This document shows, one piece after another, positions 1,936 through 15,626 of a stretch of DNA of 15,626 nt. The stretch's first letter is position 1; each line of letters begins with the position of its first letter. The notes beneath the pieces were generated by a model. It saw only the letters and a program-made list of their open reading frames with translations, was not told where the DNA came from and made no database searches. The DNA comes from an uncultured Chloroflexia bacterium (lineage in GTDB: Bacteria; Chloroflexota; Dehalococcoidia; DSTF01; JALHUB01), in contig CAVSBT010000040.1 in NCBI GenBank assembly GCA_963726245.1, positions 1-15,626 of the forward strand. Direction: 5' to 3'. The position numbers and the translations under genes were made by a program.

Positions 1936-2025
1936 TGGTGCCGGGGGCGGGGCTCGAACCCGCATGTCCCTCTCGGGACGGCGGATTTTAAGTCCGCTGC
2001 GTATGCCAGATTTCGCCACCCCGGC
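1936..2025 (-). tRNA. trnL: tRNA-Leu(TAA)
   Basis: Reverse complement GCCGGGGTGGCGAAATCTGGCATACGCAGCGGACTTAAAATCCGCCGTCCCGAGAGGGACATGCGGGTTCGAGCCCCGCCCCCGGCACCA. Anticodon arm GCGGA-CT-TAA-AA-TCCGC, long variable arm, GTTCGA T-loop, encoded CCA, no intron. Confidence 0.97.
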
Positions 2026-2171: not shown

Positions 2172-2246
2172 TGGAGGCGACGGCCGGATTCGAACCGGCG
2201 ATAGGGGTTTTGCAGACCCCCGCCTTAACCACTTGGCCACGTCGCC
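2172..2246 (-). tRNA. trnC: tRNA-Cys(GCA)
   Basis: Reverse complement GGCGACGTGGCCAAGTGGTTAAGGCGGGGGTCTGCAAAACCCCTATCGCCGGTTCGAATCCGGCCGTCGCCTCCA. Anticodon loop CT-GCA-AA, U73 discriminator, encoded CCA. Confidence 0.97.
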
Positions 2247-2247
2247 C

Positions 2248-6716: not shown

Positions 6717-7301
6717 TCAGTCGTCACGAGGGACAAGACGCGCCCCGCGATTCACGACGAGGTCCTCCATCGCCTTCTCCAGCGGCACGTCCAGTGCGAC
6801 GGCCACCGTGCTCGTGTACCGCATCAGCGCTACCGATGCCACGATCTCGACGATCTCGGCGTCAGTCCAACCCACGGCCCGAAGCTCGTCGACCATCTCG
6901 TCGGTGACCGCTGCCGGCCGCCGCCCCACGACGCGGGCGAAATTCGCGGCTGCGTTCTCCTTGTCCGAGAGCCGCGGCGAGGGTTTGCCGTCGATAATCT
7001 CCAGACACTCATCCGTGCTCCAGTGCTTGCCGCGCAGGGCAATCATGTGGGCGGCGGTGCAGTACTGACACTCGACCTCGCAGGCCGTCACGACGAAAAA
7101 CACGCGCTTCAGCTCTTCGCGGATGCTGCCCTCCCGGACGGTAGCCTGGCTCAGCGTCCACAAGGCGTCCGTAGTCTCGGGAAGGTAGGCCAGCCCCTTT
7201 TGGAGACCGGGGACCATCCGGTAGTAGCCCTCGACTCTATCGAACACCTCCTTGGCCCTGCCTGTGGCCTTGTCTGGATCCAACAATGCTACGCGAGCCA
7301 T
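6717..7301 (-). CDS. AhpD/carboxymuconolactone decarboxylase-family (peroxidase-like) protein
   Basis: E-L-x9-E-C-Q-Y-C-x3-H (CxxC...H) AhpD core, plus LSDKENAA...LRAVGWTDAEIVEIV. ATG at 7301 has GGAGG upstream, giving 194 aa. Confidence 0.85.
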   Translation of the reverse strand: MARVALLDPDKATGRAKEVFDRVEGYYRMVPGLQKGLAYLPETTDALWTLSQATVREGSIREELKRVFFVVTACEVECQYCTAAHMIALRGKHWSTDECLEIIDGKPSPRLSDKENAAANFARVVGRRPAAVTDEMVDELRAVGWTDAEIVEIVASVALMRYTSTVAVALDVPLEKAMEDLVVNRGARLVPRDD

Positions 7302-7315
7302 TGGTGCCTCCTTGG

Positions 7316-8212
7316 CTAATTCGAATCGAGACTCCTGTTGTCTGGACCCATTTCGACGGGCAATTCCGGGTTTGCTCCCCATTCCATCCACGAGCCGTCA
7401 TACAGGCTGACGTTCTCGTAGCCCATGACGTACAGCACGAACAGATCGAAGGCGCCGTAGACACCTGCCCCGCAGTACGTGATCACTCTTTGATCGGGTT
7501 TGATGCCCACCTTTCGCCAGAGCGACGCCAGCTCGTCGGCCGCTAGCAGGGTCTGAGTGGTCTGGTCAACGTTGGCCGGCGCAGGCAGGTTCCGGGCCGT
7601 TGCGATGTGGCCTGTTCTGTGACTCGGGTAGAGCCGCGCCCTGCCGGCGTAGAAGGCTTTTGGCAGCGCATCGACGATGCACGTGTCGCGGCTTCCTATT
7701 GCCCGCAGCACCTCGTCGCAGGTAGCTCTGAGCGCGTGCCTGTTCCGCGCCCGGAAGGTCGCGGCGGCAGGGGCGGGCGTCCGCGTCTCCAGGGGACGGC
7801 CTTCAGCGATCCACTTGGTCAGGCCCCCATTCAGAACCCTCGCCGCGTCGTGCCCGTAGTAACGCAGGGCCCACCAGAGCCGGGCGGCCCAGGTCCCACC
7901 GCTGTCGTCATACACCACGGCCGTGCTGCCGCTTCCGATCCCCAGACGCCCCATCAGCGCCTCGAAACGGCCGGGCGACAGAATGCTGAGGGGGTCCTCC
8001 GGGTCCTCGAGATCGGATGTCGGATCCACGAACACCGCTCCCGGGATGTGGCCCTGCTGATACTCCTTCTTCCCCGGCACGCCCTGGAACGACCCGCCCG
8101 AGGCCGCCCGGACGTGATAGCGCATGTCCACCACGCGGACCGACGGATCGTCGAGGTGCGCGGCCAGCCACTCCGTCGTGGCTAGCGCTTCCGGGTGTTT
8201 GTACTCCGCCAC
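7316..8212 (-). CDS. Tandem-domain rhodanese / sulfurtransferase (SseA/TST/MST family)
   Basis: TTEWLAAHLDD, GHIPGAVF, AARLWWALRYYGH, LNGGL, active loop ITYCGAGVYG, C-terminal LYDGSWMEW signature. Confidence 0.93.
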   Translation of the reverse strand: MAEYKHPEALATTEWLAAHLDDPSVRVVDMRYHVRAASGGSFQGVPGKKEYQQGHIPGAVFVDPTSDLEDPEDPLSILSPGRFEALMGRLGIGSGSTAVVYDDSGGTWAARLWWALRYYGHDAARVLNGGLTKWIAEGRPLETRTPAPAAATFRARNRHALRATCDEVLRAIGSRDTCIVDALPKAFYAGRARLYPSHRTGHIATARNLPAPANVDQTTQTLLAADELASLWRKVGIKPDQRVITYCGAGVYGAFDLFVLYVMGYENVSLYDGSWMEWGANPELPVEMGPDNRSLDSN

Positions 8213-8214
8213 GC

Positions 8215-8874
8215 TCAGCGCCCCCTGCTTCGTTCGGATCTCGCCTCGCTGGCCCCCTGGTTTTCGGCCGTCAAGTAACCCGTGATCATGTCGACCATGG
8301 GGCCGAGGAACTCCTCGGGGTCCACTTTTTCCGGCTGCGTCTGTCGCTGAAGAACGAGGCCGTCGTTCACGGCGAGCAGGAGACGAGCGGCGCGATCCAC
8401 GTCCACGTCAGCGCGGACGAGGCCCGCGCGCTTCGCGCGGGAGAAGAACCGAGCGAGGGCGGCGGAACAGTGGTCGAAGAGCGCGGCAACCGCCTCGCGC
8501 GCCCACTCGTTGCGGCCTGCCAGCGCCCAGCACTCCATCAACAAGGGCGACCAGATGGGGTCCGTCCGGCACGTTGCCCAGGAGGCCTCCATGATGCGGA
8601 GGATGCTCTCGCGAAGTGGCAGATCGGGCTCGAGCCGGGCGGCGGTCTCTGCGGCCCGGCGGCGCACGTGCTCGAGGAGGATGGTGCGAAAGAGATCCTC
8701 CTTGCTGGCAAAGTGGCTATAGAGCGCTCCTTTGGCGATACCGCACTCGGCCGTGATCTCCTCCACGGTCGCTGCCTCGTAGCCCCGACGGCCGAAAACG
8801 CGGTAGGCCGCCTCCAGGATGCGGGCTCGTGTCTCCTCCTTGCGTTGCTGCGGTAGTGTCAGCACTCCTGCCAC
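8215..8874 (-). CDS. TetR/AcrR-family transcriptional regulator
   Basis: TRARILEAAYRVFGRRGYEAATVEEITAECGIAKGALYSHFASKEDLF helix-turn-helix. GTG start with AGGAGG upstream. Confidence 0.93.
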   Translation of the reverse strand: MAGVLTLPQQRKEETRARILEAAYRVFGRRGYEAATVEEITAECGIAKGALYSHFASKEDLFRTILLEHVRRRAAETAARLEPDLPLRESILRIMEASWATCRTDPIWSPLLMECWALAGRNEWAREAVAALFDHCSAALARFFSRAKRAGLVRADVDVDRAARLLLAVNDGLVLQRQTQPEKVDPEEFLGPMVDMITGYLTAENQGASEARSERSRGR

Positions 8875-8984: not shown

Positions 8985-9013
8985 TTCCAGGGCTGGTGCC
9001 GTCGTGGTATAGT
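8985..9013 (+). promoter_or_regulatory. Sigma70 promoter for the MerB-like gene
   Basis: TTCCAG (8985-8990), 17-nt spacer, TATAGT (9008-9013), with extended -10 TG at 9005-9006. AGGAGGAG ribosome-binding site precedes ATG 9060. Confidence 0.6.
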
Positions 9014-9059
9014 CTGCAGCGCCAGGCCCAAAGGATTGACCTTGGAAAGGAGGAGCGCC

Positions 9060-9770
9060 ATGGCGGAACCGCAGCTTCTGGCAAGCATGTACCACGCGAT
9101 CATCAGCGGCATGGTTCGCGACGGCCGGGCTCCCCACTACGCGGAGCTGGCCACCGAGGTAGGCCTCTCCCCAGACGAGGCCCGCCAGGCGCTCCATGAC
9201 CTCGACGGAAGAGGCGTGCCGGGCTTCTGGGTTCGCTCGGGTACCGATCTCGTGGAGTCCTGCGCGCCCTTTTCGAACATTCCCACCCAGTACCGTATCA
9301 CCGTCGAGGGGCAGCAGAAATGGCACGGGCAGTGAGGGTTTGAGTCGCTAGCGGTCAGCTGGCTCTACCCCGGCAAGCAAGTACAGATAGACTGCCCCTG
9401 CCTCGACTGCAACGAGCCGATACGGGTGCGGATGCGGGACGGCGAGATCCTGGAAGCGTCCCCGGGCACCATCGTGGGCCACGTCAACGTGCCGTTCTCG
9501 CGCTGGCGCGAGGACATGGCCCGCGCCTGAAGCCTCATGAACCTCTTCCGGTCGGAAGAGCACGTGCGGAACTGGTCGCTGTACGACTCAGGGAGCAGCG
9601 ACGGGACTATGCCCCTTCGGGACTATGCCACCCTGTTTGGGACTGGGATGTTCCGCCAGCGGCTGGAGCCGGACTACGTGCTCCGGCTGCCGCAGCTCGC
9701 TGTCGAGTGGATGACCGCCCTGGCGAAGCTAGGGAAGACAGGGCCCTTCTGGCGGCTGGGTGGAACCTAA
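9060..9770 (+). CDS. MerB (organomercurial lyase)-like protein, predicted selenoprotein with two Sec residues (U92, U157), 236 aa
   Basis: One continuous frame from ATG 9060 to TAA 9768-9770, interrupted only by TGA 9333-9335 and TGA 9528-9530: MAEPQLL...GRAPHYAELATEVGLSPDEARQALHDL...CAPFSNIPTQYRITVEGQQKWHGQ-U-GFESLAVSWLYPGKQVQIDCPCLDCNEPIRVRMRDGEIL...GHVNVPFSRWREDMARA-U-SLMNLFRSEEHVRNW...FWRLGGT. N-terminal winged-helix-like segment, PFS-x2-PT motif, and both TGAs at MerB catalytic Cys positions, each followed by a hairpin. Confidence 0.85.
9336..9370 (+). promoter_or_regulatory. Putative bacterial SECIS element 1
   Basis: Immediately 3' of TGA 9333: stacked stems GGGT/ACCC, GAGTC/GGCTC and GCT/AGC, with CGGTC at the apex (9352-9356). 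Confidence 0.65.
9536..9566 (+). promoter_or_regulatory. Putative bacterial SECIS element 2
   Basis: 3' of TGA 9528: perfect 7-bp stem CTCTTCC (9543-9549), GGTC loop, GGAAGAG (9554-9560), with a lower stem CATG/CGTG. Confidence 0.75.
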
Positions 9771-10794: not shown

Positions 10795-13700
10795 CTATTG
10801 GGGCGGCAGGCTGCCCGTGGGCGGAGGCTCGGCTATGGAAGGCCTGCTGTCGTCCGCCCAGCCGGTCACGACCTCGACCGTGTGCGCCTGGCGGTCGTCG
10901 ACGAGCCGGATCGACCTCTCGTTCTGCGCAATGCCGTCAACGACGAGGCGCACTCCATCACCCGCGCTCGCTCGTCGAACGGTGATCGCGTAGGTCGTCT
11001 CCCGGTAGCGGTAGCTAAGGGTGAACGACTGCCAGTCGGGCGGCAGGCAGGGCGTGAAAGAGAGCCGGTCCACCTCCAAGCGAAGGCCGAGCAGCGACTC
11101 GACGATCAGCCGGTACATCCAGCCGGCGGCACCCGTGTACCAAGTCCAGCCGCCTGCGCCCGTATGCGGCGGCAGCGCGTAGACATCGGCCGCGACGATG
11201 TACGGCTCCACGCGATAGGTCGCCGCCTTCTCCGCGCTCGACGCGTGGTTGAGTGGGCTGATCAGCGAGAGCAGTTCCCAGGCGCGGCGGCTGTCGCCCA
11301 GCGCCGCGAAGGCCATGACCACCCAGATCGCGGCGTGCGTGTACTGGCCGCCATTCTCCCTCACGCCCGGCGGATACCCCTTGATGTATCCGGGGTTCAG
11401 GTCGGACTTGTCAAACGGCGGGTCGAGGAGCTGGATGAGGGCCTGATCGCGCCGGACGAGCAGCCGGTCGACCGACTCCATCGCGATGCGTGCGCGGCGC
11501 AGGTCGCCGGCGCCGGAGATCACAGACCAGCTCTGGGGTATCGAGTCGATCCGGCACTCCGGGCTGCTGGCAGAGCCGAGGGGCTTGCCGCTGTCGAAGT
11601 AGGCGCGGAGGTACCGGTCGCCGTCCCAGGCACGCATCTCGGCGGCGCGGCAGAGCGCAGCGGCCTCCGACTCTGACCGCTCGGCTAGGGCAGCGTCACC
11701 GTGGAGCCGCGCGACCTCGGCAAACTGTGCGAGCACGTGGTGGAGGAAGAACGCCAGCCAGACACTCTCGCCCTGGCCGCCCCGGCCGACCAAGTTCATA
11801 CCGTCGTTCCAATCGCCGGAGCCGATCAGCGGCAGCCCGTGCCGGCCGAGCCGCGTCCCCCGCTCGATCGCCCGGACGCAGTGCTCGTAGAGCGTGCCCG
11901 CCTCCTCGGACGATGCGGGCAGGTCGTAGTAGGAGTCCTCGTCCGGGTTGAGCGGCCGCCCCTCGATGTAGGCGACGCGCTCGTCGAGGACGCCGGTGTC
12001 GCCCGTGGCGAGGACATAGCGGGCCGTCGCCAGGGGCAGCCAGAGCAAGTCATCGGAGCAGCGAGTCCGCACGCCGCGCCCGGTCGGCGGGTGCCACCAG
12101 TGCTGGACGTCCCCCTCGCGGAACTGGCGGGCCGCGCAGCGCAGCAGATGCTCGCGGATGAGCAGCGGTTGGGCGTGGAGAAGCGCCATCACGTCCTGGA
12201 GTTGGTCGCGGAAGCCGAAGGCGCCGCCCGACTGGTAGAAGCCGGTCCGCGCCCAGAGGCGGCAAGCGATCGCCTGATAGAGGAGCCAGCCATTGGCGAG
12301 GATGTTGACAGTCGGCTCCGGCGTCTCGACGCGGACGGCGCCGAGGATGCGTTCCCAGTGCGCCTCGACCGCCTCCAGCGCCGCGTGCGCGGGGCCGGGG
12401 CCGCGGAAGCGCCGCACCAGGTCGCGCGCCTCCTCCTCGTCGCGCCCGACGCCGAGGACGAAGACGATCTCCCGCTCCTCGCCGTCGGCCAGGTCGACCT
12501 GGACCTGCAGCGCGGCGCAGGGGTCCAGCCCGGCGCCAACACGGCCCGATAGGCGGGCGCGCGTCATCGCGGCGGGTTGGCCGGGCAGGCCGTTGCGGCC
12601 GAGGAACTCGGTGCGGTCGCAGGTAACGGTGCGGGTCGCCTCGTCCACGTCGAAGAAGGCGACGCGGCCGGGGAAGTCGCCGTTGTAGGGGTTGCGGGCG
12701 AAGACGGCGCCGCTGTTCGGGTCGATCTCGGTGACGACGTGGAGGAGCGACTTTGCCCGCTGCTCGCCGAGCACCCACTCAACGTAGCCCGTCGCCGAGA
12801 GGCGGCGCGCCCGGCCCGACTCGTTGCGAAGCGTAAGCGCCATCAGCTTCACCGACGCGTCGAGCGCGACGTACTCGGCCAACTCGGAGGTCACGCCGGC
12901 CTCCGCGTGCTCGAACACCGTGTAGCCGAAGCCGTGGCGGCAGGTGTAGGTGGTGGCGCCGCGGGCCGGTAGCGGCGTTGGCGACCAGTAGCGACCGGTC
13001 TCCTCGTCGCGAATGTAGAAGGCCTCGCCGCTGGCGTCGGTCACCGGGTCGTTGTACCAGGGCGTGAGACGCTGCTCGTGGGCGTTCTCGCCCCAGGTGT
13101 AGGCACCGCCGCTCTCCGTGATCACGGTGCCGAACTGTGGGTTCGCCAGCACGTTCGCCCAGGGCGCGGGCGTCGTCTCGCCGGGCCGCAGGGTGACGAC
13201 GTACTCGCGCCCGTCAAGCGTGAAGCCGCCGAGGCCGTTCGAAAGCACGAGGTCGCGGCTAGGGAGCTCGACGGCGCGCTCGGGCTCTGGCACGACGTCC
13301 TCCGCTGGCGCGAGCGCTGGCACCGCTTGCTCGACGCGGCGTCCCCGCTCGATCTGCTCGGCGAGCGTCCCGGCGCTGTCGATGATCACAACGCGGGCGA
13401 CGGTCTGCTGAAGGATCCTGTCCTCCTCCGACATCTGGTCGGCGTGCCGGACGAAGATGCCGCCCGGCCGGTCGATGACGTGCGACTCCGGTTCCGGCGG
13501 CGACGAGCCCCAGGATCTCCTCGTGCAGCTCCTGGCGGTAGCCGGACGGCTCCTCGTTCCAGATGACGAGGTCGACTGCGAGCCCGGTGAGACGCCAGTA
13601 CGCATGCGCCTGGACGAGCTGCCGCACGAGCTCGATCTTCGTTCGGTCGCTGATGCGCAGGAGGACGATGGGCAAGTCGCCGGAGATGCCGAAGCCCCAG

Positions 13701-15626
13701 AGGCCTGACTGCGCGCGCCGGTTGCGGGCGAGGACGTTCGCCGGGGCACGGCGGCCCGCGTTGGCGTAGACGATCGAGCTGGCGAGACGGCCGTAGAGCT
13801 GGGCGTCGGACTCGGTCGCGCCGAGCTGGCGGAGGACCACCTGCCGATGGGTCGTCGCCAAATCGAAGACGCGGTTGGCCAGGCGCCGGTCGTGGTACTT
13901 GCCGGCGAGCGCCATCGCCGCCTCGCGTGTCTCGCCGACGCCGGTCACCACATTCACCCAGACCGTCTCATCCGGACCTACCGTAACCTGGCGGCGAACC
14001 GAGACGATAGGATCAAGCACGGGCCCCTGGCTGTCGGAAAGGCCGGCGCCGTCCGCCATCGCCTTCGGGTCGGCGAGCGACCGGCCGCGCCCGATGAAGC
14101 GCAGCCGGTCCGTCTCGAACGACGCCTCCCCGATGGAGGTCGTCTCGCCGGCGTCCATCAAATGGACCATCCAGGGGGTCGACTCGCTGGGTGAGCGCGG
14201 CCGCCGCGAGCAGAGGATCGCGTCGTGCGAAGGGACGATCTCCGTCTGGACGAAGAGGTTGCTGAGGGCCGGGTGGGTGGCGTCGGCGGGCGGCGGCGCC
14301 ATCACCACCTCCGCATAGCTCGTCACCTCAATCGTCCGCCGCGTGCGCGAGCGGTTCGTTATCCTGATGCGCCTGATCTCGACGTCGTCCTGTGGCGAGA
14401 CGGCGATCTCGGTGTGCGTGTCGATGTCGCCATCGCGGCGCCGGTACTCGGCGCGCGCTTGGGAGAAGATCGCGTTGTAGGTCTTCGGCTGCTTGAGCAT
14501 CGGCTGGTAGGCCGCGGACCAGACCTCGCCGGTCGTCAGGTCGCGGAGGTAGCAGAACGTGCCGTAGCAGTCGCGTGTCGCGTCCTCCTGCCAGCGTGTG
14601 ACCGCGAGGTCGCGCCAACGGCTATAGCCGCCCCCGGCGTTGGTCACCATAATGCTGTAGCTGCCGTTGGAGAGCAGGTGCACCTCCGGCGAGCCGGAGT
14701 TGGGGTTGTTGAAGATGCGGAGGAGCGCCTGGTACTCGCCGGCGCGCTGCTGCAGGCCGGACGTCTCGGCGGCGTTTGGATAGAAGGGAGCGACCTTCGG
14801 CACGCGCTCCTGTAGCAGCATCTCTGTCGCCCGGAAGAGCGGCTCGGAGAGGAAGCGGCGCTGCATCGGCCTGCCGAGGAGCGTGTAGGCGAGGGAGAGG
14901 AAGCTCATACCCTCGTGATGTGGCATGAACGACCGCACGAGCGCGAACGCCGCGCCTCGCGGCTGCCGCGAGGGCGTGTAGTCGATCGCCTCGTAGAGGC
15001 CGTACCGGCCCTCCGCGCCGAGGTCGACGAGCCGCTTAAGGTTCGCGCACGCCTGTTCCGGCGCGACCATCAGCGCCATCGCCGTCGCGTAGGGTGCCAC
15101 GACCAGGTCCTCGGCGAGGCCACGCTTGAAGCCGAGGCCCGGCACGCCGAAGGCGCGGTACTGGTACCTGAGGTAGGCGTCCGTCGTATTGTAGCCGGAC
15201 TCGGAGATACCCCAGGGGACACCCCGCTGGGCGCCGTACTGGATTTGGCGCCGGACGACGGCCTTGTAGGTTCGGTCAAGCACGGTGTCCTCGTAGGTCG
15301 GCATGACGATGAGCGGCATCAGGTACTCGAACATGGAGCCGCCCCAGGAGAGGAGGGCAGGATCGGCGCCGGAGGTCGTACGAGGCGACCGAGGGCGAAC
15401 CAGTACTCCTGCGACAGTTGGTGTTGCGCGATGGCGACGAAGGTGGCGAGGCGCGCCTCTGAGGCCAGCAGGTCGTAATAGCTCGGGTCGCGCCGCCGCT
15501 CGGCGATGTCGTAGCCGATGACGAACAGGTGACGCGACTGGTCCGTCAGGAAGTCGTAGTCCATGTCGGCCAGTTCGTTGCAGAGCTGGCCGAGCCGTCG
15601 ATCGCCTCCAACCGGTCAGCCGCGCG
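10795..15626 (-). pseudogene. ndvB: C-terminal part of an NdvB/Cgs-like cyclic beta-1,2-glucan synthase-family protein with GH94 phosphorylase domains; frameshifted near 15598, 15380 and 13489 (pseudogene or sequencing errors); 5' end outside the window
   Basis: SYYDLLASEARL, (W)[83 protein letters not shown] and GGWTWYTG motifs are spread over ORFs 15319-15564, 13259-15334 and 10795-13749, which join through single-base shifts. Confidence 0.85.

Follow-up and report, generated by a model that had tools for sequence, protein, structure and literature searches.

A MerB-like gene of an uncultured Dehalococcoidia bacterium with in-frame TGA codons at both catalytic positions: a predicted two-selenocysteine protein

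The gene at 9060-9770 and its relation to MerB

The window analysed here is the whole stretch of 15,626 nucleotides (nt) of contig CAVSBT010000040.1, from an uncultured bacterium of the Dehalococcoidia. On its + strand, at 9060-9770, lies a gene that reads as a single frame of 236 codons when TGA is translated as selenocysteine (Sec, written U); the only interruptions are TGA at codons 92 and 157. The two sites lie in the motifs WHGQ-U-GFE and MARA-U-SLMNLF, spaced 65 residues apart. The default listing of open reading frames (ORFs) splits the gene into 9036-9335 (+, 99 amino acids (aa), TTG start) and 9537-9770 (+, 77 aa). A preliminary description, made from the letters alone, had joined these apparently unrelated fragments into one frame interrupted by TGA twice, at codons 92 and 157; translation of 9060-9770 bears this out. 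From its conservation and its hairpins, we judge it very probable that the gene encodes a genuine two-Sec selenoprotein, related to the organomercurial lyase MerB. The elements of the gene, with the evidence for each, are as follows.

9060..9770, + strand: coding sequence of the predicted 236-residue MerB-fold selenoprotein, from ATG 9060 to TAA 9768-9770 (translation, Pfam MerB match, tblastn through both TGAs, third-position differences)
9049..9053, + strand: Shine-Dalgarno-like GGAGG, 6 nt upstream of ATG 9060 (read directly)
9005..9013, + strand: possible extended -10 element TGgTATAGT, weak (read directly; not called by the consensus scan)
9333..9335, + strand: TGA codon 92, predicted Sec, counterpart of MerB Cys96 (translation and profile alignment)
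9342..9344, + strand: GAG codon 95, Glu at the MerB Asp99 position, proposed proton donor (profile alignment)
9347..9363, + strand: SECIS-like hairpin 1 (SECIS, selenocysteine insertion sequence), GCUAGC-GGUCA-GCUGGC, with a stem that begins 15 nt from the U of UGA (pairing, frozen synonymous sites)
9399..9410, + strand: C114-L-D-C117 motif, invariant (invariant columns of family alignment A2; alignment to MerB)
9528..9530, + strand: TGA codon 157, predicted Sec, counterpart of MerB Cys159 (translation and profile alignment)
9543..9560, + strand: SECIS-like hairpin 2, CUCUUCC-GGUC-GGAAGAG, with a stem that begins 16 nt from the U of UGA (pairing, one covarying pair, frozen codons)

Upstream of the gene, the strong ribosome-binding site proposed in the preliminary description is present, while the promoter proposed with it is borne out only in part: the TGgTATAGT string can be read, but a consensus scan around the gene called neither a promoter on the + strand nor a terminator. 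The sole promoter call of that scan was a - strand site at 8957-8929, facing the neighbouring TetR gene.

For all protein searches, C stood in for U. The protein matched the Pfam MerB family (PF03243) over residues 71-177 with 70.9 bits (E 1.3e-19; gathering cut-off 27), which upholds the earlier assignment as MerB-like. The closest solved structure was MerB2 of Bacillus megaterium (PDB 5c17). A profile built from 36 family members was aligned to the solved MerB chains: against MerB2 it aligned residues 19-190, both catalytic columns included, with an E value of 5.6e-13, and against the MerB chains of plasmid R831b it aligned residues 76-190. The pairs were U92/Cys96, E95/Asp99, C114/Cys117 and U157/Cys159, so that U92, E95 and U157 fall on the MerB positions Cys96, Asp99 and Cys159, as had been proposed. 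In the accessible part of a mer gene survey (PMC8261052), Cys96, Asp99, Cys159 and Cys117 are the criteria that define MerB. The aligned columns here hold Sec, Glu, Sec and Cys, which are chemically analogous to the defining residues but are not those residues. Past the region that can be aligned to the solved MerB chains, the protein has a conserved C-terminal extension (about residues 190-236). The P-C-L-D-C motif around the invariant C114-L-D-C117 (9399-9410) is itself invariant: C114 corresponds to the buried Cys117 of MerB, and C117 is an additional invariant Cys, giving a CxxC.

Conservation of the TGA codons and of the hairpins that follow them

Codons at the catalytic columns were counted at 160 related loci, namely the best 80 of 574 relatives from a genome scan (one genome per species) and the best 80 of 431 metagenome relatives. 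The genome loci carried TGA/Glu/TGA in 78 cases and TGC/Glu/TGA in two; the metagenome loci carried TGA/TGA in 79 cases and TGC/TGA in one. Pooled, this gives TGA/TGA at 157 loci and TGC/TGA at three, with TGA in the second column at all 160 and TGG in either column at none. E95 was invariant, encoded by GAA or GAG at each of the 80 metagenome loci and read as Glu at the 80 genome loci. Beyond these near relatives, we aligned the query with 22 homologues (alignment A5), of which 20 are full-length distant proteins at 22-38% identity and two are closer (P0031, 47%; P0059, 43%). Column 157 held Cys in all 22 and column 92 in at least 90% of them, usually with an Asp or Glu three residues past the first Cys. 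An in-frame UGA opposite Cys in homologues, the pattern that marks a selenoprotein, is thus found at both columns. The comparison of homologues proposed in the preliminary description accordingly gives TGA/TGA in near relatives, TGC at the first site in a few, and Cys/Cys in distant full-length proteins. Two of these distant Cys/Cys homologues, P0232 (313 aa) and P0233 (326 aa), carry a C-terminal extension resembling a LuxR-type helix-turn-helix (HTH), as read from the aligned tails; if rightly read, these tails suggest that the MerB fold can serve as the sensing domain of a transcription factor.

Within the same taxonomic order, a match was present in 14 of 61 genomes, that of the window included; one of the 61, G045, is unpublished, and no individual claim draws on it. 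Two in-frame TGAs were present in each of nine loci that were full or nearly so, at 53-83% identity, and one locus at 43% identity had Cys in the first column and TGA in the second. When 300 genomes sampled from the phylum were searched with the Cys/Sec form, one further genome was found. The hosts named in the sequence records are Dehalococcoidia and other Chloroflexota, Syntrophales, Desulfobacterales, Nitrospinota, Acidobacteriota, Poribacteria, Abyssobacteria and Ca. Sulfobium. In certain closed Chloroflexota genomes the two-Sec gene is present twice, with the copies far apart, as in G009 (C1:1930139-1930843 and C1:177126-177827; loci L032 and L041) and in OY969584.1 (L050 and L051).

The tblastn alignments to relatives run over residues 1-236, across both stops. 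Compared with 11 close relatives of equal length, third codon positions accounted for most of the differences, in the N-terminal segment as well as in the middle and C-terminal ones; for locus L047, the differences at codon positions 1/2/3 were 16/5/42, 3/2/28 and 15/7/30 in the three segments in order. The middle segment was the most conserved part. The sequence between the two TGAs is therefore coding-like, as had been claimed, and the conservation together with the third-position pattern indicates that translation continues in the same frame through the middle and C-terminal parts. Assembled contigs from other sequencing runs speak to the letters themselves. A 204-nt contig from run X1 is identical to the window and spans the first TGA, and in the contigs of four runs no differing letter at either TGA was among the differences listed (37 further differences fall outside that list). 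Parts of the gene that these contigs leave uncovered carry no information. Among the runs listed as sharing sequence with the window, none was of RNA and none contained half or more of the words sampled. The expectation that reads would show TGA at both sites is supported in part, by contigs of other samples.

Database entries reflect the same interruptions. Among the 120 listed database proteins, the two columns were occupied as follows.

Trp at both columns: 26/120
Cys at both columns: 2/120
Cys at the first column, protein ending short of the second: 91/120
Phe at the first column: 1/120

Seven of the 91 Cys-first proteins were aligned, and all of them stop at the residue preceding column 157. 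In an exhaustive profile search, many matches end at position 91, span 94-156 or span 160-232. The gene is hence represented in databases by fragments up to residue 91, by pieces of about 63 aa from the middle and of about 77 aa from the end, or by forms containing W. With default ORFs splitting it as well, the earlier remark that standard annotation would miss this gene proved apt.

Each TGA is followed by a hairpin of the kind expected of a bacterial selenoprotein gene. Both hairpins have a GGUC-type loop, which we take to resemble the loop of the E. coli fdhF SECIS, and in both the G-U of the loop lies 22-25 nt from the U of UGA. Pairing was kept in 99.8% of cells for hairpin 1 (71 distinct sequences) and in 98.1% for hairpin 2 (67 distinct sequences), whereas controls slid along the sequence paired at 10-61%. 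One pair of hairpin 2 covaried, as CG in 43 sequences, UA in 13 and UG in 4, and was unpaired in 7. Synonymous codons inside the hairpins were nearly fixed, as the following counts show beside the overall use of each codon in these genes.

F163, hairpin 2: TTC in 80/80; overall use 59%
R164, hairpin 2: CGG in 78/79; overall use 31%
S165, hairpin 2: TCG in 79/79; overall use 28%
E166, hairpin 2: GAA in 80/80; overall use 51%
S96, hairpin 1: TCG in 75/75; overall use 28%

At the flanking codons G93, P104, H168 and R170, all or most synonyms were in use. These frozen synonymous sites are the strongest evidence for the selection that probably acts on the RNA. Five loci, a small sample, have Cys at the first site; three of these have lost the loop GU or a stem pair of hairpin 1. 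Contigs of four sediment and soil metagenome runs gave a peak of summed depth at 9540-9566 (417 in X4, 123 in X2) and a smaller one at 9324-9350, with a depth of about 15 elsewhere in X4 and many loose contig ends on either side. Such peaks over the TGA-plus-hairpin segments point to RNA elements of about 40 nt common to many organisms. A genome-wide scan for TGA plus hairpin in open frames returned 37 matches, mostly spurious in this genome of 68% GC, and was not used.

Selenocysteine machinery and the use of TGA in the host

The host bin (2.68 Mb, 83% complete, about 6% contamination) carries selA (547.6 bits), selB, selD and tRNA-Sec, all above their cut-offs, so the machinery for which the preliminary description had proposed a search is present. 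The selB match (258.2 bits) is barely above its cut-off and covers model positions 2-248 and 528-580. The two tRNA-Sec genes score 71 bits each and have the anticodon TCA (G000 C31:67876-67969, -, and C19:83811-83904, -; L002 and L003); given a contamination of 6.3%, this pair may be a true duplicate or may come from two organisms in one bin. The selD gene (G000 C27:105940-106875, +; L019) has an in-frame TGA of its own; its TGA region showed no clearly comparable hairpin, and hence we claim no SECIS type shared within the host. A second selD-like gene (G000 C31:35422-36172, +; L020 and L021) consists of two adjoining pieces in different frames and may reflect a frameshift or a foreign contig.

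Among relatives with the TGA form, selA scored over the cut-off in 10 of 11, and the eleventh had a selA fragment at a contig end. This co-occurrence is a weak test, because selA is common in the order (45 of 61 genomes). In one relative, G010, selA is broken into ten pieces over three contigs, suggesting that frameshifts are frequent in that assembly. TGA also serves as an ordinary stop: it ends the ETF-alpha, CMD and TetR genes of the window and, in 21 of 80 relatives, the MerB-like gene itself. TGA is therefore not generally reassigned in these organisms.

Three readings other than a two-Sec protein would dispense with selenium, and each can be set against the data above. The frame might be a pseudogene, or its TGAs might be errors of sequencing or assembly, and two in-frame stops in a metagenome bin of such completeness and contamination would suit this. 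Yet 157 of 160 independent loci, from several phyla, share both TGA columns, all three segments look coding and under purifying selection, and the identical contig from another run spans the first TGA. Because the TGA columns recur and the differences fall on third positions, we regard a pseudogene or an error as excluded for practical purposes. It is scarcely more credible that the segments on either side are separate small proteins (residues 1-91 and 160-236) with an untranslated middle. Here the ATG at 9537 does open a 77-aa ORF, and many database entries are exactly such fragments; but it is the middle segment that is best conserved, that changes at third positions and that accounts for the greater part of the Pfam MerB match, no start codon occurs in its frame before 9426, and both catalytic columns lie exactly at the breaks.

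The last of the three readings takes TGA as Trp (or Gly) at positions without a catalytic role, in keeping with the W found at both columns in 26 of the 120 listed homologues. The origin of these proteins argues otherwise. All 26 come from contigs of at most 2.6 kb; their nearest DNA loci (46-93% identical) have stops in place of W, at both Ws in 24 of the 26; and one cluster at 90% mixes W/W members of 231 aa with fragments of 58-73 aa and 155 aa. The W residues are probably artefacts of gene callers that chose a TGA-sense code on short contigs. With no TGG among the 160 loci, TGA ending Pfam-supported genes of the window, and Cys/Cys in the distant homologues, we give the Trp reading almost no weight.

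Possible function, known relatives and genomic setting

If the two-Sec reading holds, SelB with Sec-tRNA would read each hairpin and insert Sec at codons 92 and 157, giving one chain of 236 residues, which in our best explanation is cytoplasmic. By the MerB mechanism, the two selenolates would clamp an organometallic substrate by its soft metal or metalloid atom, and Glu95, replacing Asp99, would protonate the leaving carbon so that the carbon-metal bond is cleaved. According to the accessible part of a review (PMC11639659), selone mimics of organomercurial lyase cleave Hg-C faster than their sulfur analogues. On balance we favour the whole of this explanation, a two-Sec MerB-fold protein that cleaves the carbon-metal bond of an organometallic compound. 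Taken by itself, carbon-metal bond cleavage is a tentative assignment by analogy, somewhat doubtful still; it is made because the MerB catalytic pattern is conserved, the context giving no pathway.

The gene stands alone, with a divergent TetR gene on one side and a convergent GH94 gene on the other. Upstream, on the opposite strand, lie genes for a two-domain rhodanese, a CMD/AhpD-like protein, an OYE-like FMN/FAD oxidoreductase and ETF alpha and beta. The TetR, two-domain rhodanese and CMD/AhpD-like genes form a trio (6717-8874, -) between the MerB-like gene and the OYE/ETF cluster, and of 170 related loci only 2-4 have this trio in their flanks. OYE-like or ETF genes lay within the fetched flanks of 40 of 79 loci of the close clade versus 4 of 91 others; the linkage is a feature of one clade only, where common descent alone may explain it. 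PF03243 is matched once in the host genome. Searched in six frames with an HgcA motif, this 83% complete genome gave no match, which is a weak negative.

Several observations weigh against a two-Sec lyase. A Pfam scan of the window found no mer genes beside the gene, with merA, merR, merT and merP not nearby, and in the 83%-complete genome the best match to the MerA model reached 240.6 bits against a cut-off of 454.45. Since there is no mer operon, classical broad-spectrum mercury resistance is not what we propose. Clustering of ORFs over 81 loci gave no partner family in more than 13 loci, so that the context is of little help on the substrate. The NCBIfam MerB models scored 23.2 bits (cut-off 193) and 21.4 bits (cut-off 200). 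As to the RNA, covariation is confined to one pair, and conserved residues, with Trp and Cys/Ser codons among them, keep part of each stem constant in any case. The folding energies of the two hairpins, each taken alone, have z-scores of -1.30 and -1.57, with 19 of 200 and 16 of 200 shuffles folding as well, and Rfam returned no SECIS family match on the 1-kb region, only two chance-level matches. Finally, the predicted clustering of U92, E95 and U157 in one site is read from a sequence alignment, and selenium incorporation and lyase activity are both predictions rather than direct observations.

Much of this could also be accommodated by a two-Sec MerB-fold protein that is not a lyase at all, for instance a diselenide redox centre of very low potential, a carrier of soft metal or selenium, or a module that senses a ligand. 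The missing mer context would then be natural, as would the redox neighbours in the close clade, the rhodanese, CMD/AhpD-like and TetR genes that adjoin in the window, and the extra invariant C117 that makes a CxxC with C114; the LuxR-type HTH tails, if rightly read, fit sensing. On the other hand, the pattern of the MerB triad (Cys/Sec, Asp/Glu, Cys/Sec) is kept exactly and Glu95 is invariant; a carrier or redox pair has no obvious need of a proton donor, and the OYE/ETF linkage may mean shared ancestry only. We consider a non-lyase role unlikely, if far from negligible, and continue with the two-Sec lyase as the preferred reading.

The nearest described system is SaoL, which the preliminary description had named as a MerB-like selenoprotein of SAO loci, in agreement with the accessible text of the Haft and Gwadz preprint (10.1101/2022.07.06.499078). 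As described there, SaoL (NF040728) has a CU dipeptide with one Sec at the Cys159 position, retains Cys99 and Asp102, and belongs to a nine-gene SAO locus found mainly in Firmicutes. The present protein shares with SaoL the MerB fold, an annotation truncated at UGA, Sec at the MerB Cys159 position and the lack of a mer operon. It differs in having Sec at both columns, A-U at 156-157 instead of CU, and Glu instead of Asp as the acid, and it scores 39.1 bits on the NCBIfam SaoL model against a cut-off of 140. Its neighbours are not the nine-gene SAO set: the Pfam scan of the window found no ABC transporter or efflux genes, though individual Sao family models were not searched. Its hosts are mostly Dehalococcoidia/Chloroflexota, Syntrophales and Desulfobacterales bins, unlike the mainly Firmicutes hosts of SaoL.

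Canonical MerB (EC 4.99.1.2; plasmid R831b; PDB 1s6l, 3f0p, 3f2g and 3fn8) belongs to the same Pfam family, with the Cys96, Asp99, Cys159 and Cys117 columns matched, but has Cys, Asp, Cys where the present protein has Sec, Glu, Sec, and the latter has the C-terminal extension and no mer context. Because its scores (21-23 bits against 193-200 for MerB, besides that for SaoL) are far under both sets of NCBIfam cut-offs, the protein is neither canonical MerB nor SaoL, and no model of NCBIfam release 20.0 claims it. MerB2 (5c17), the best solved relative with both catalytic columns aligned, carries Cys in these two columns and Ser where the acid would stand; its setting is a mer transposon. The uncharacterised Cys/Cys and Cys/Sec relatives have the same architecture and the motifs PTQY, Q-C/U-GFE, PCLDC and C/U-S-x-MNLFRSEEH, but one Sec or none: P0031 and P0059 are Cys/Cys, and L036, L213 and L184 are TGC/TGA. 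To these may be added database entries of about 155 aa with Cys at the first site that end just before the second. The source names of relatives are only "hypothetical protein" or "alkylmercury lyase-like protein".

In the accessible part of a 2026 review (PMC13188914), which counts 119 selenoprotein families or subfamilies and gives almost all of them one Sec, the sole MerB-like entry has the motif CU and one Sec; that of a 2022 review (PMC9312934) has the same single entry without a motif. We found no description of a two-Sec MerB in the literature searched, a search outside which most subscription journals and supplementary files lay, and the guess that no characterised MerB has both catalytic Cys replaced by Sec agrees with this. 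A second, widespread branch of MerB-like selenoproteins, in which both catalytic positions are predicted to be Sec and two SECIS elements lie in frame, is in our view well supported by the conservation described above. Compared with the one Sec of SaoL, this branch would be far more widespread and would have its whole metal-binding pair in selenium, with a SECIS of its own for each Sec. It would add a multi-Sec family with two well-defined SECIS elements to those of bacteria. Surveys of MerB that screen for Cys96 and Cys159, as the accessible part of PMC8261052 describes, would skip the gene.

For anaerobes without mer operons, the gene is a concrete candidate for organometal chemistry. The groups known to carry hgcAB overlap the hosts that the record titles name (Dehalococcoidia, Syntrophales, Desulfobacterales, Nitrospirota and Acidobacteriota). 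A speculative and rather improbable extension would be an "all-selenium" MerB family that cleaves methylmercury or other organometals and organometalloids independently of mer in anoxic sediments; if it were true, the gene would be a candidate for the long-sought enzyme of anaerobic methylmercury degradation without a mer operon.

Two minor features of the window lie apart from this gene. Two segments, 1940-2025 (-) and 2175-2247 (-), cross-match the tRNA-Sec model at 38 and 42 bits, below the cut-off, and are probably ordinary tRNA genes. Downstream, two long overlapping ORFs, 10795-13749 (-) and 13259-15334 (-), each contain a GH94 supersandwich domain. These ORFs may represent neighbouring genes for GH94-type phosphorylases or glucan synthases, or else a single gene whose frame is disturbed.

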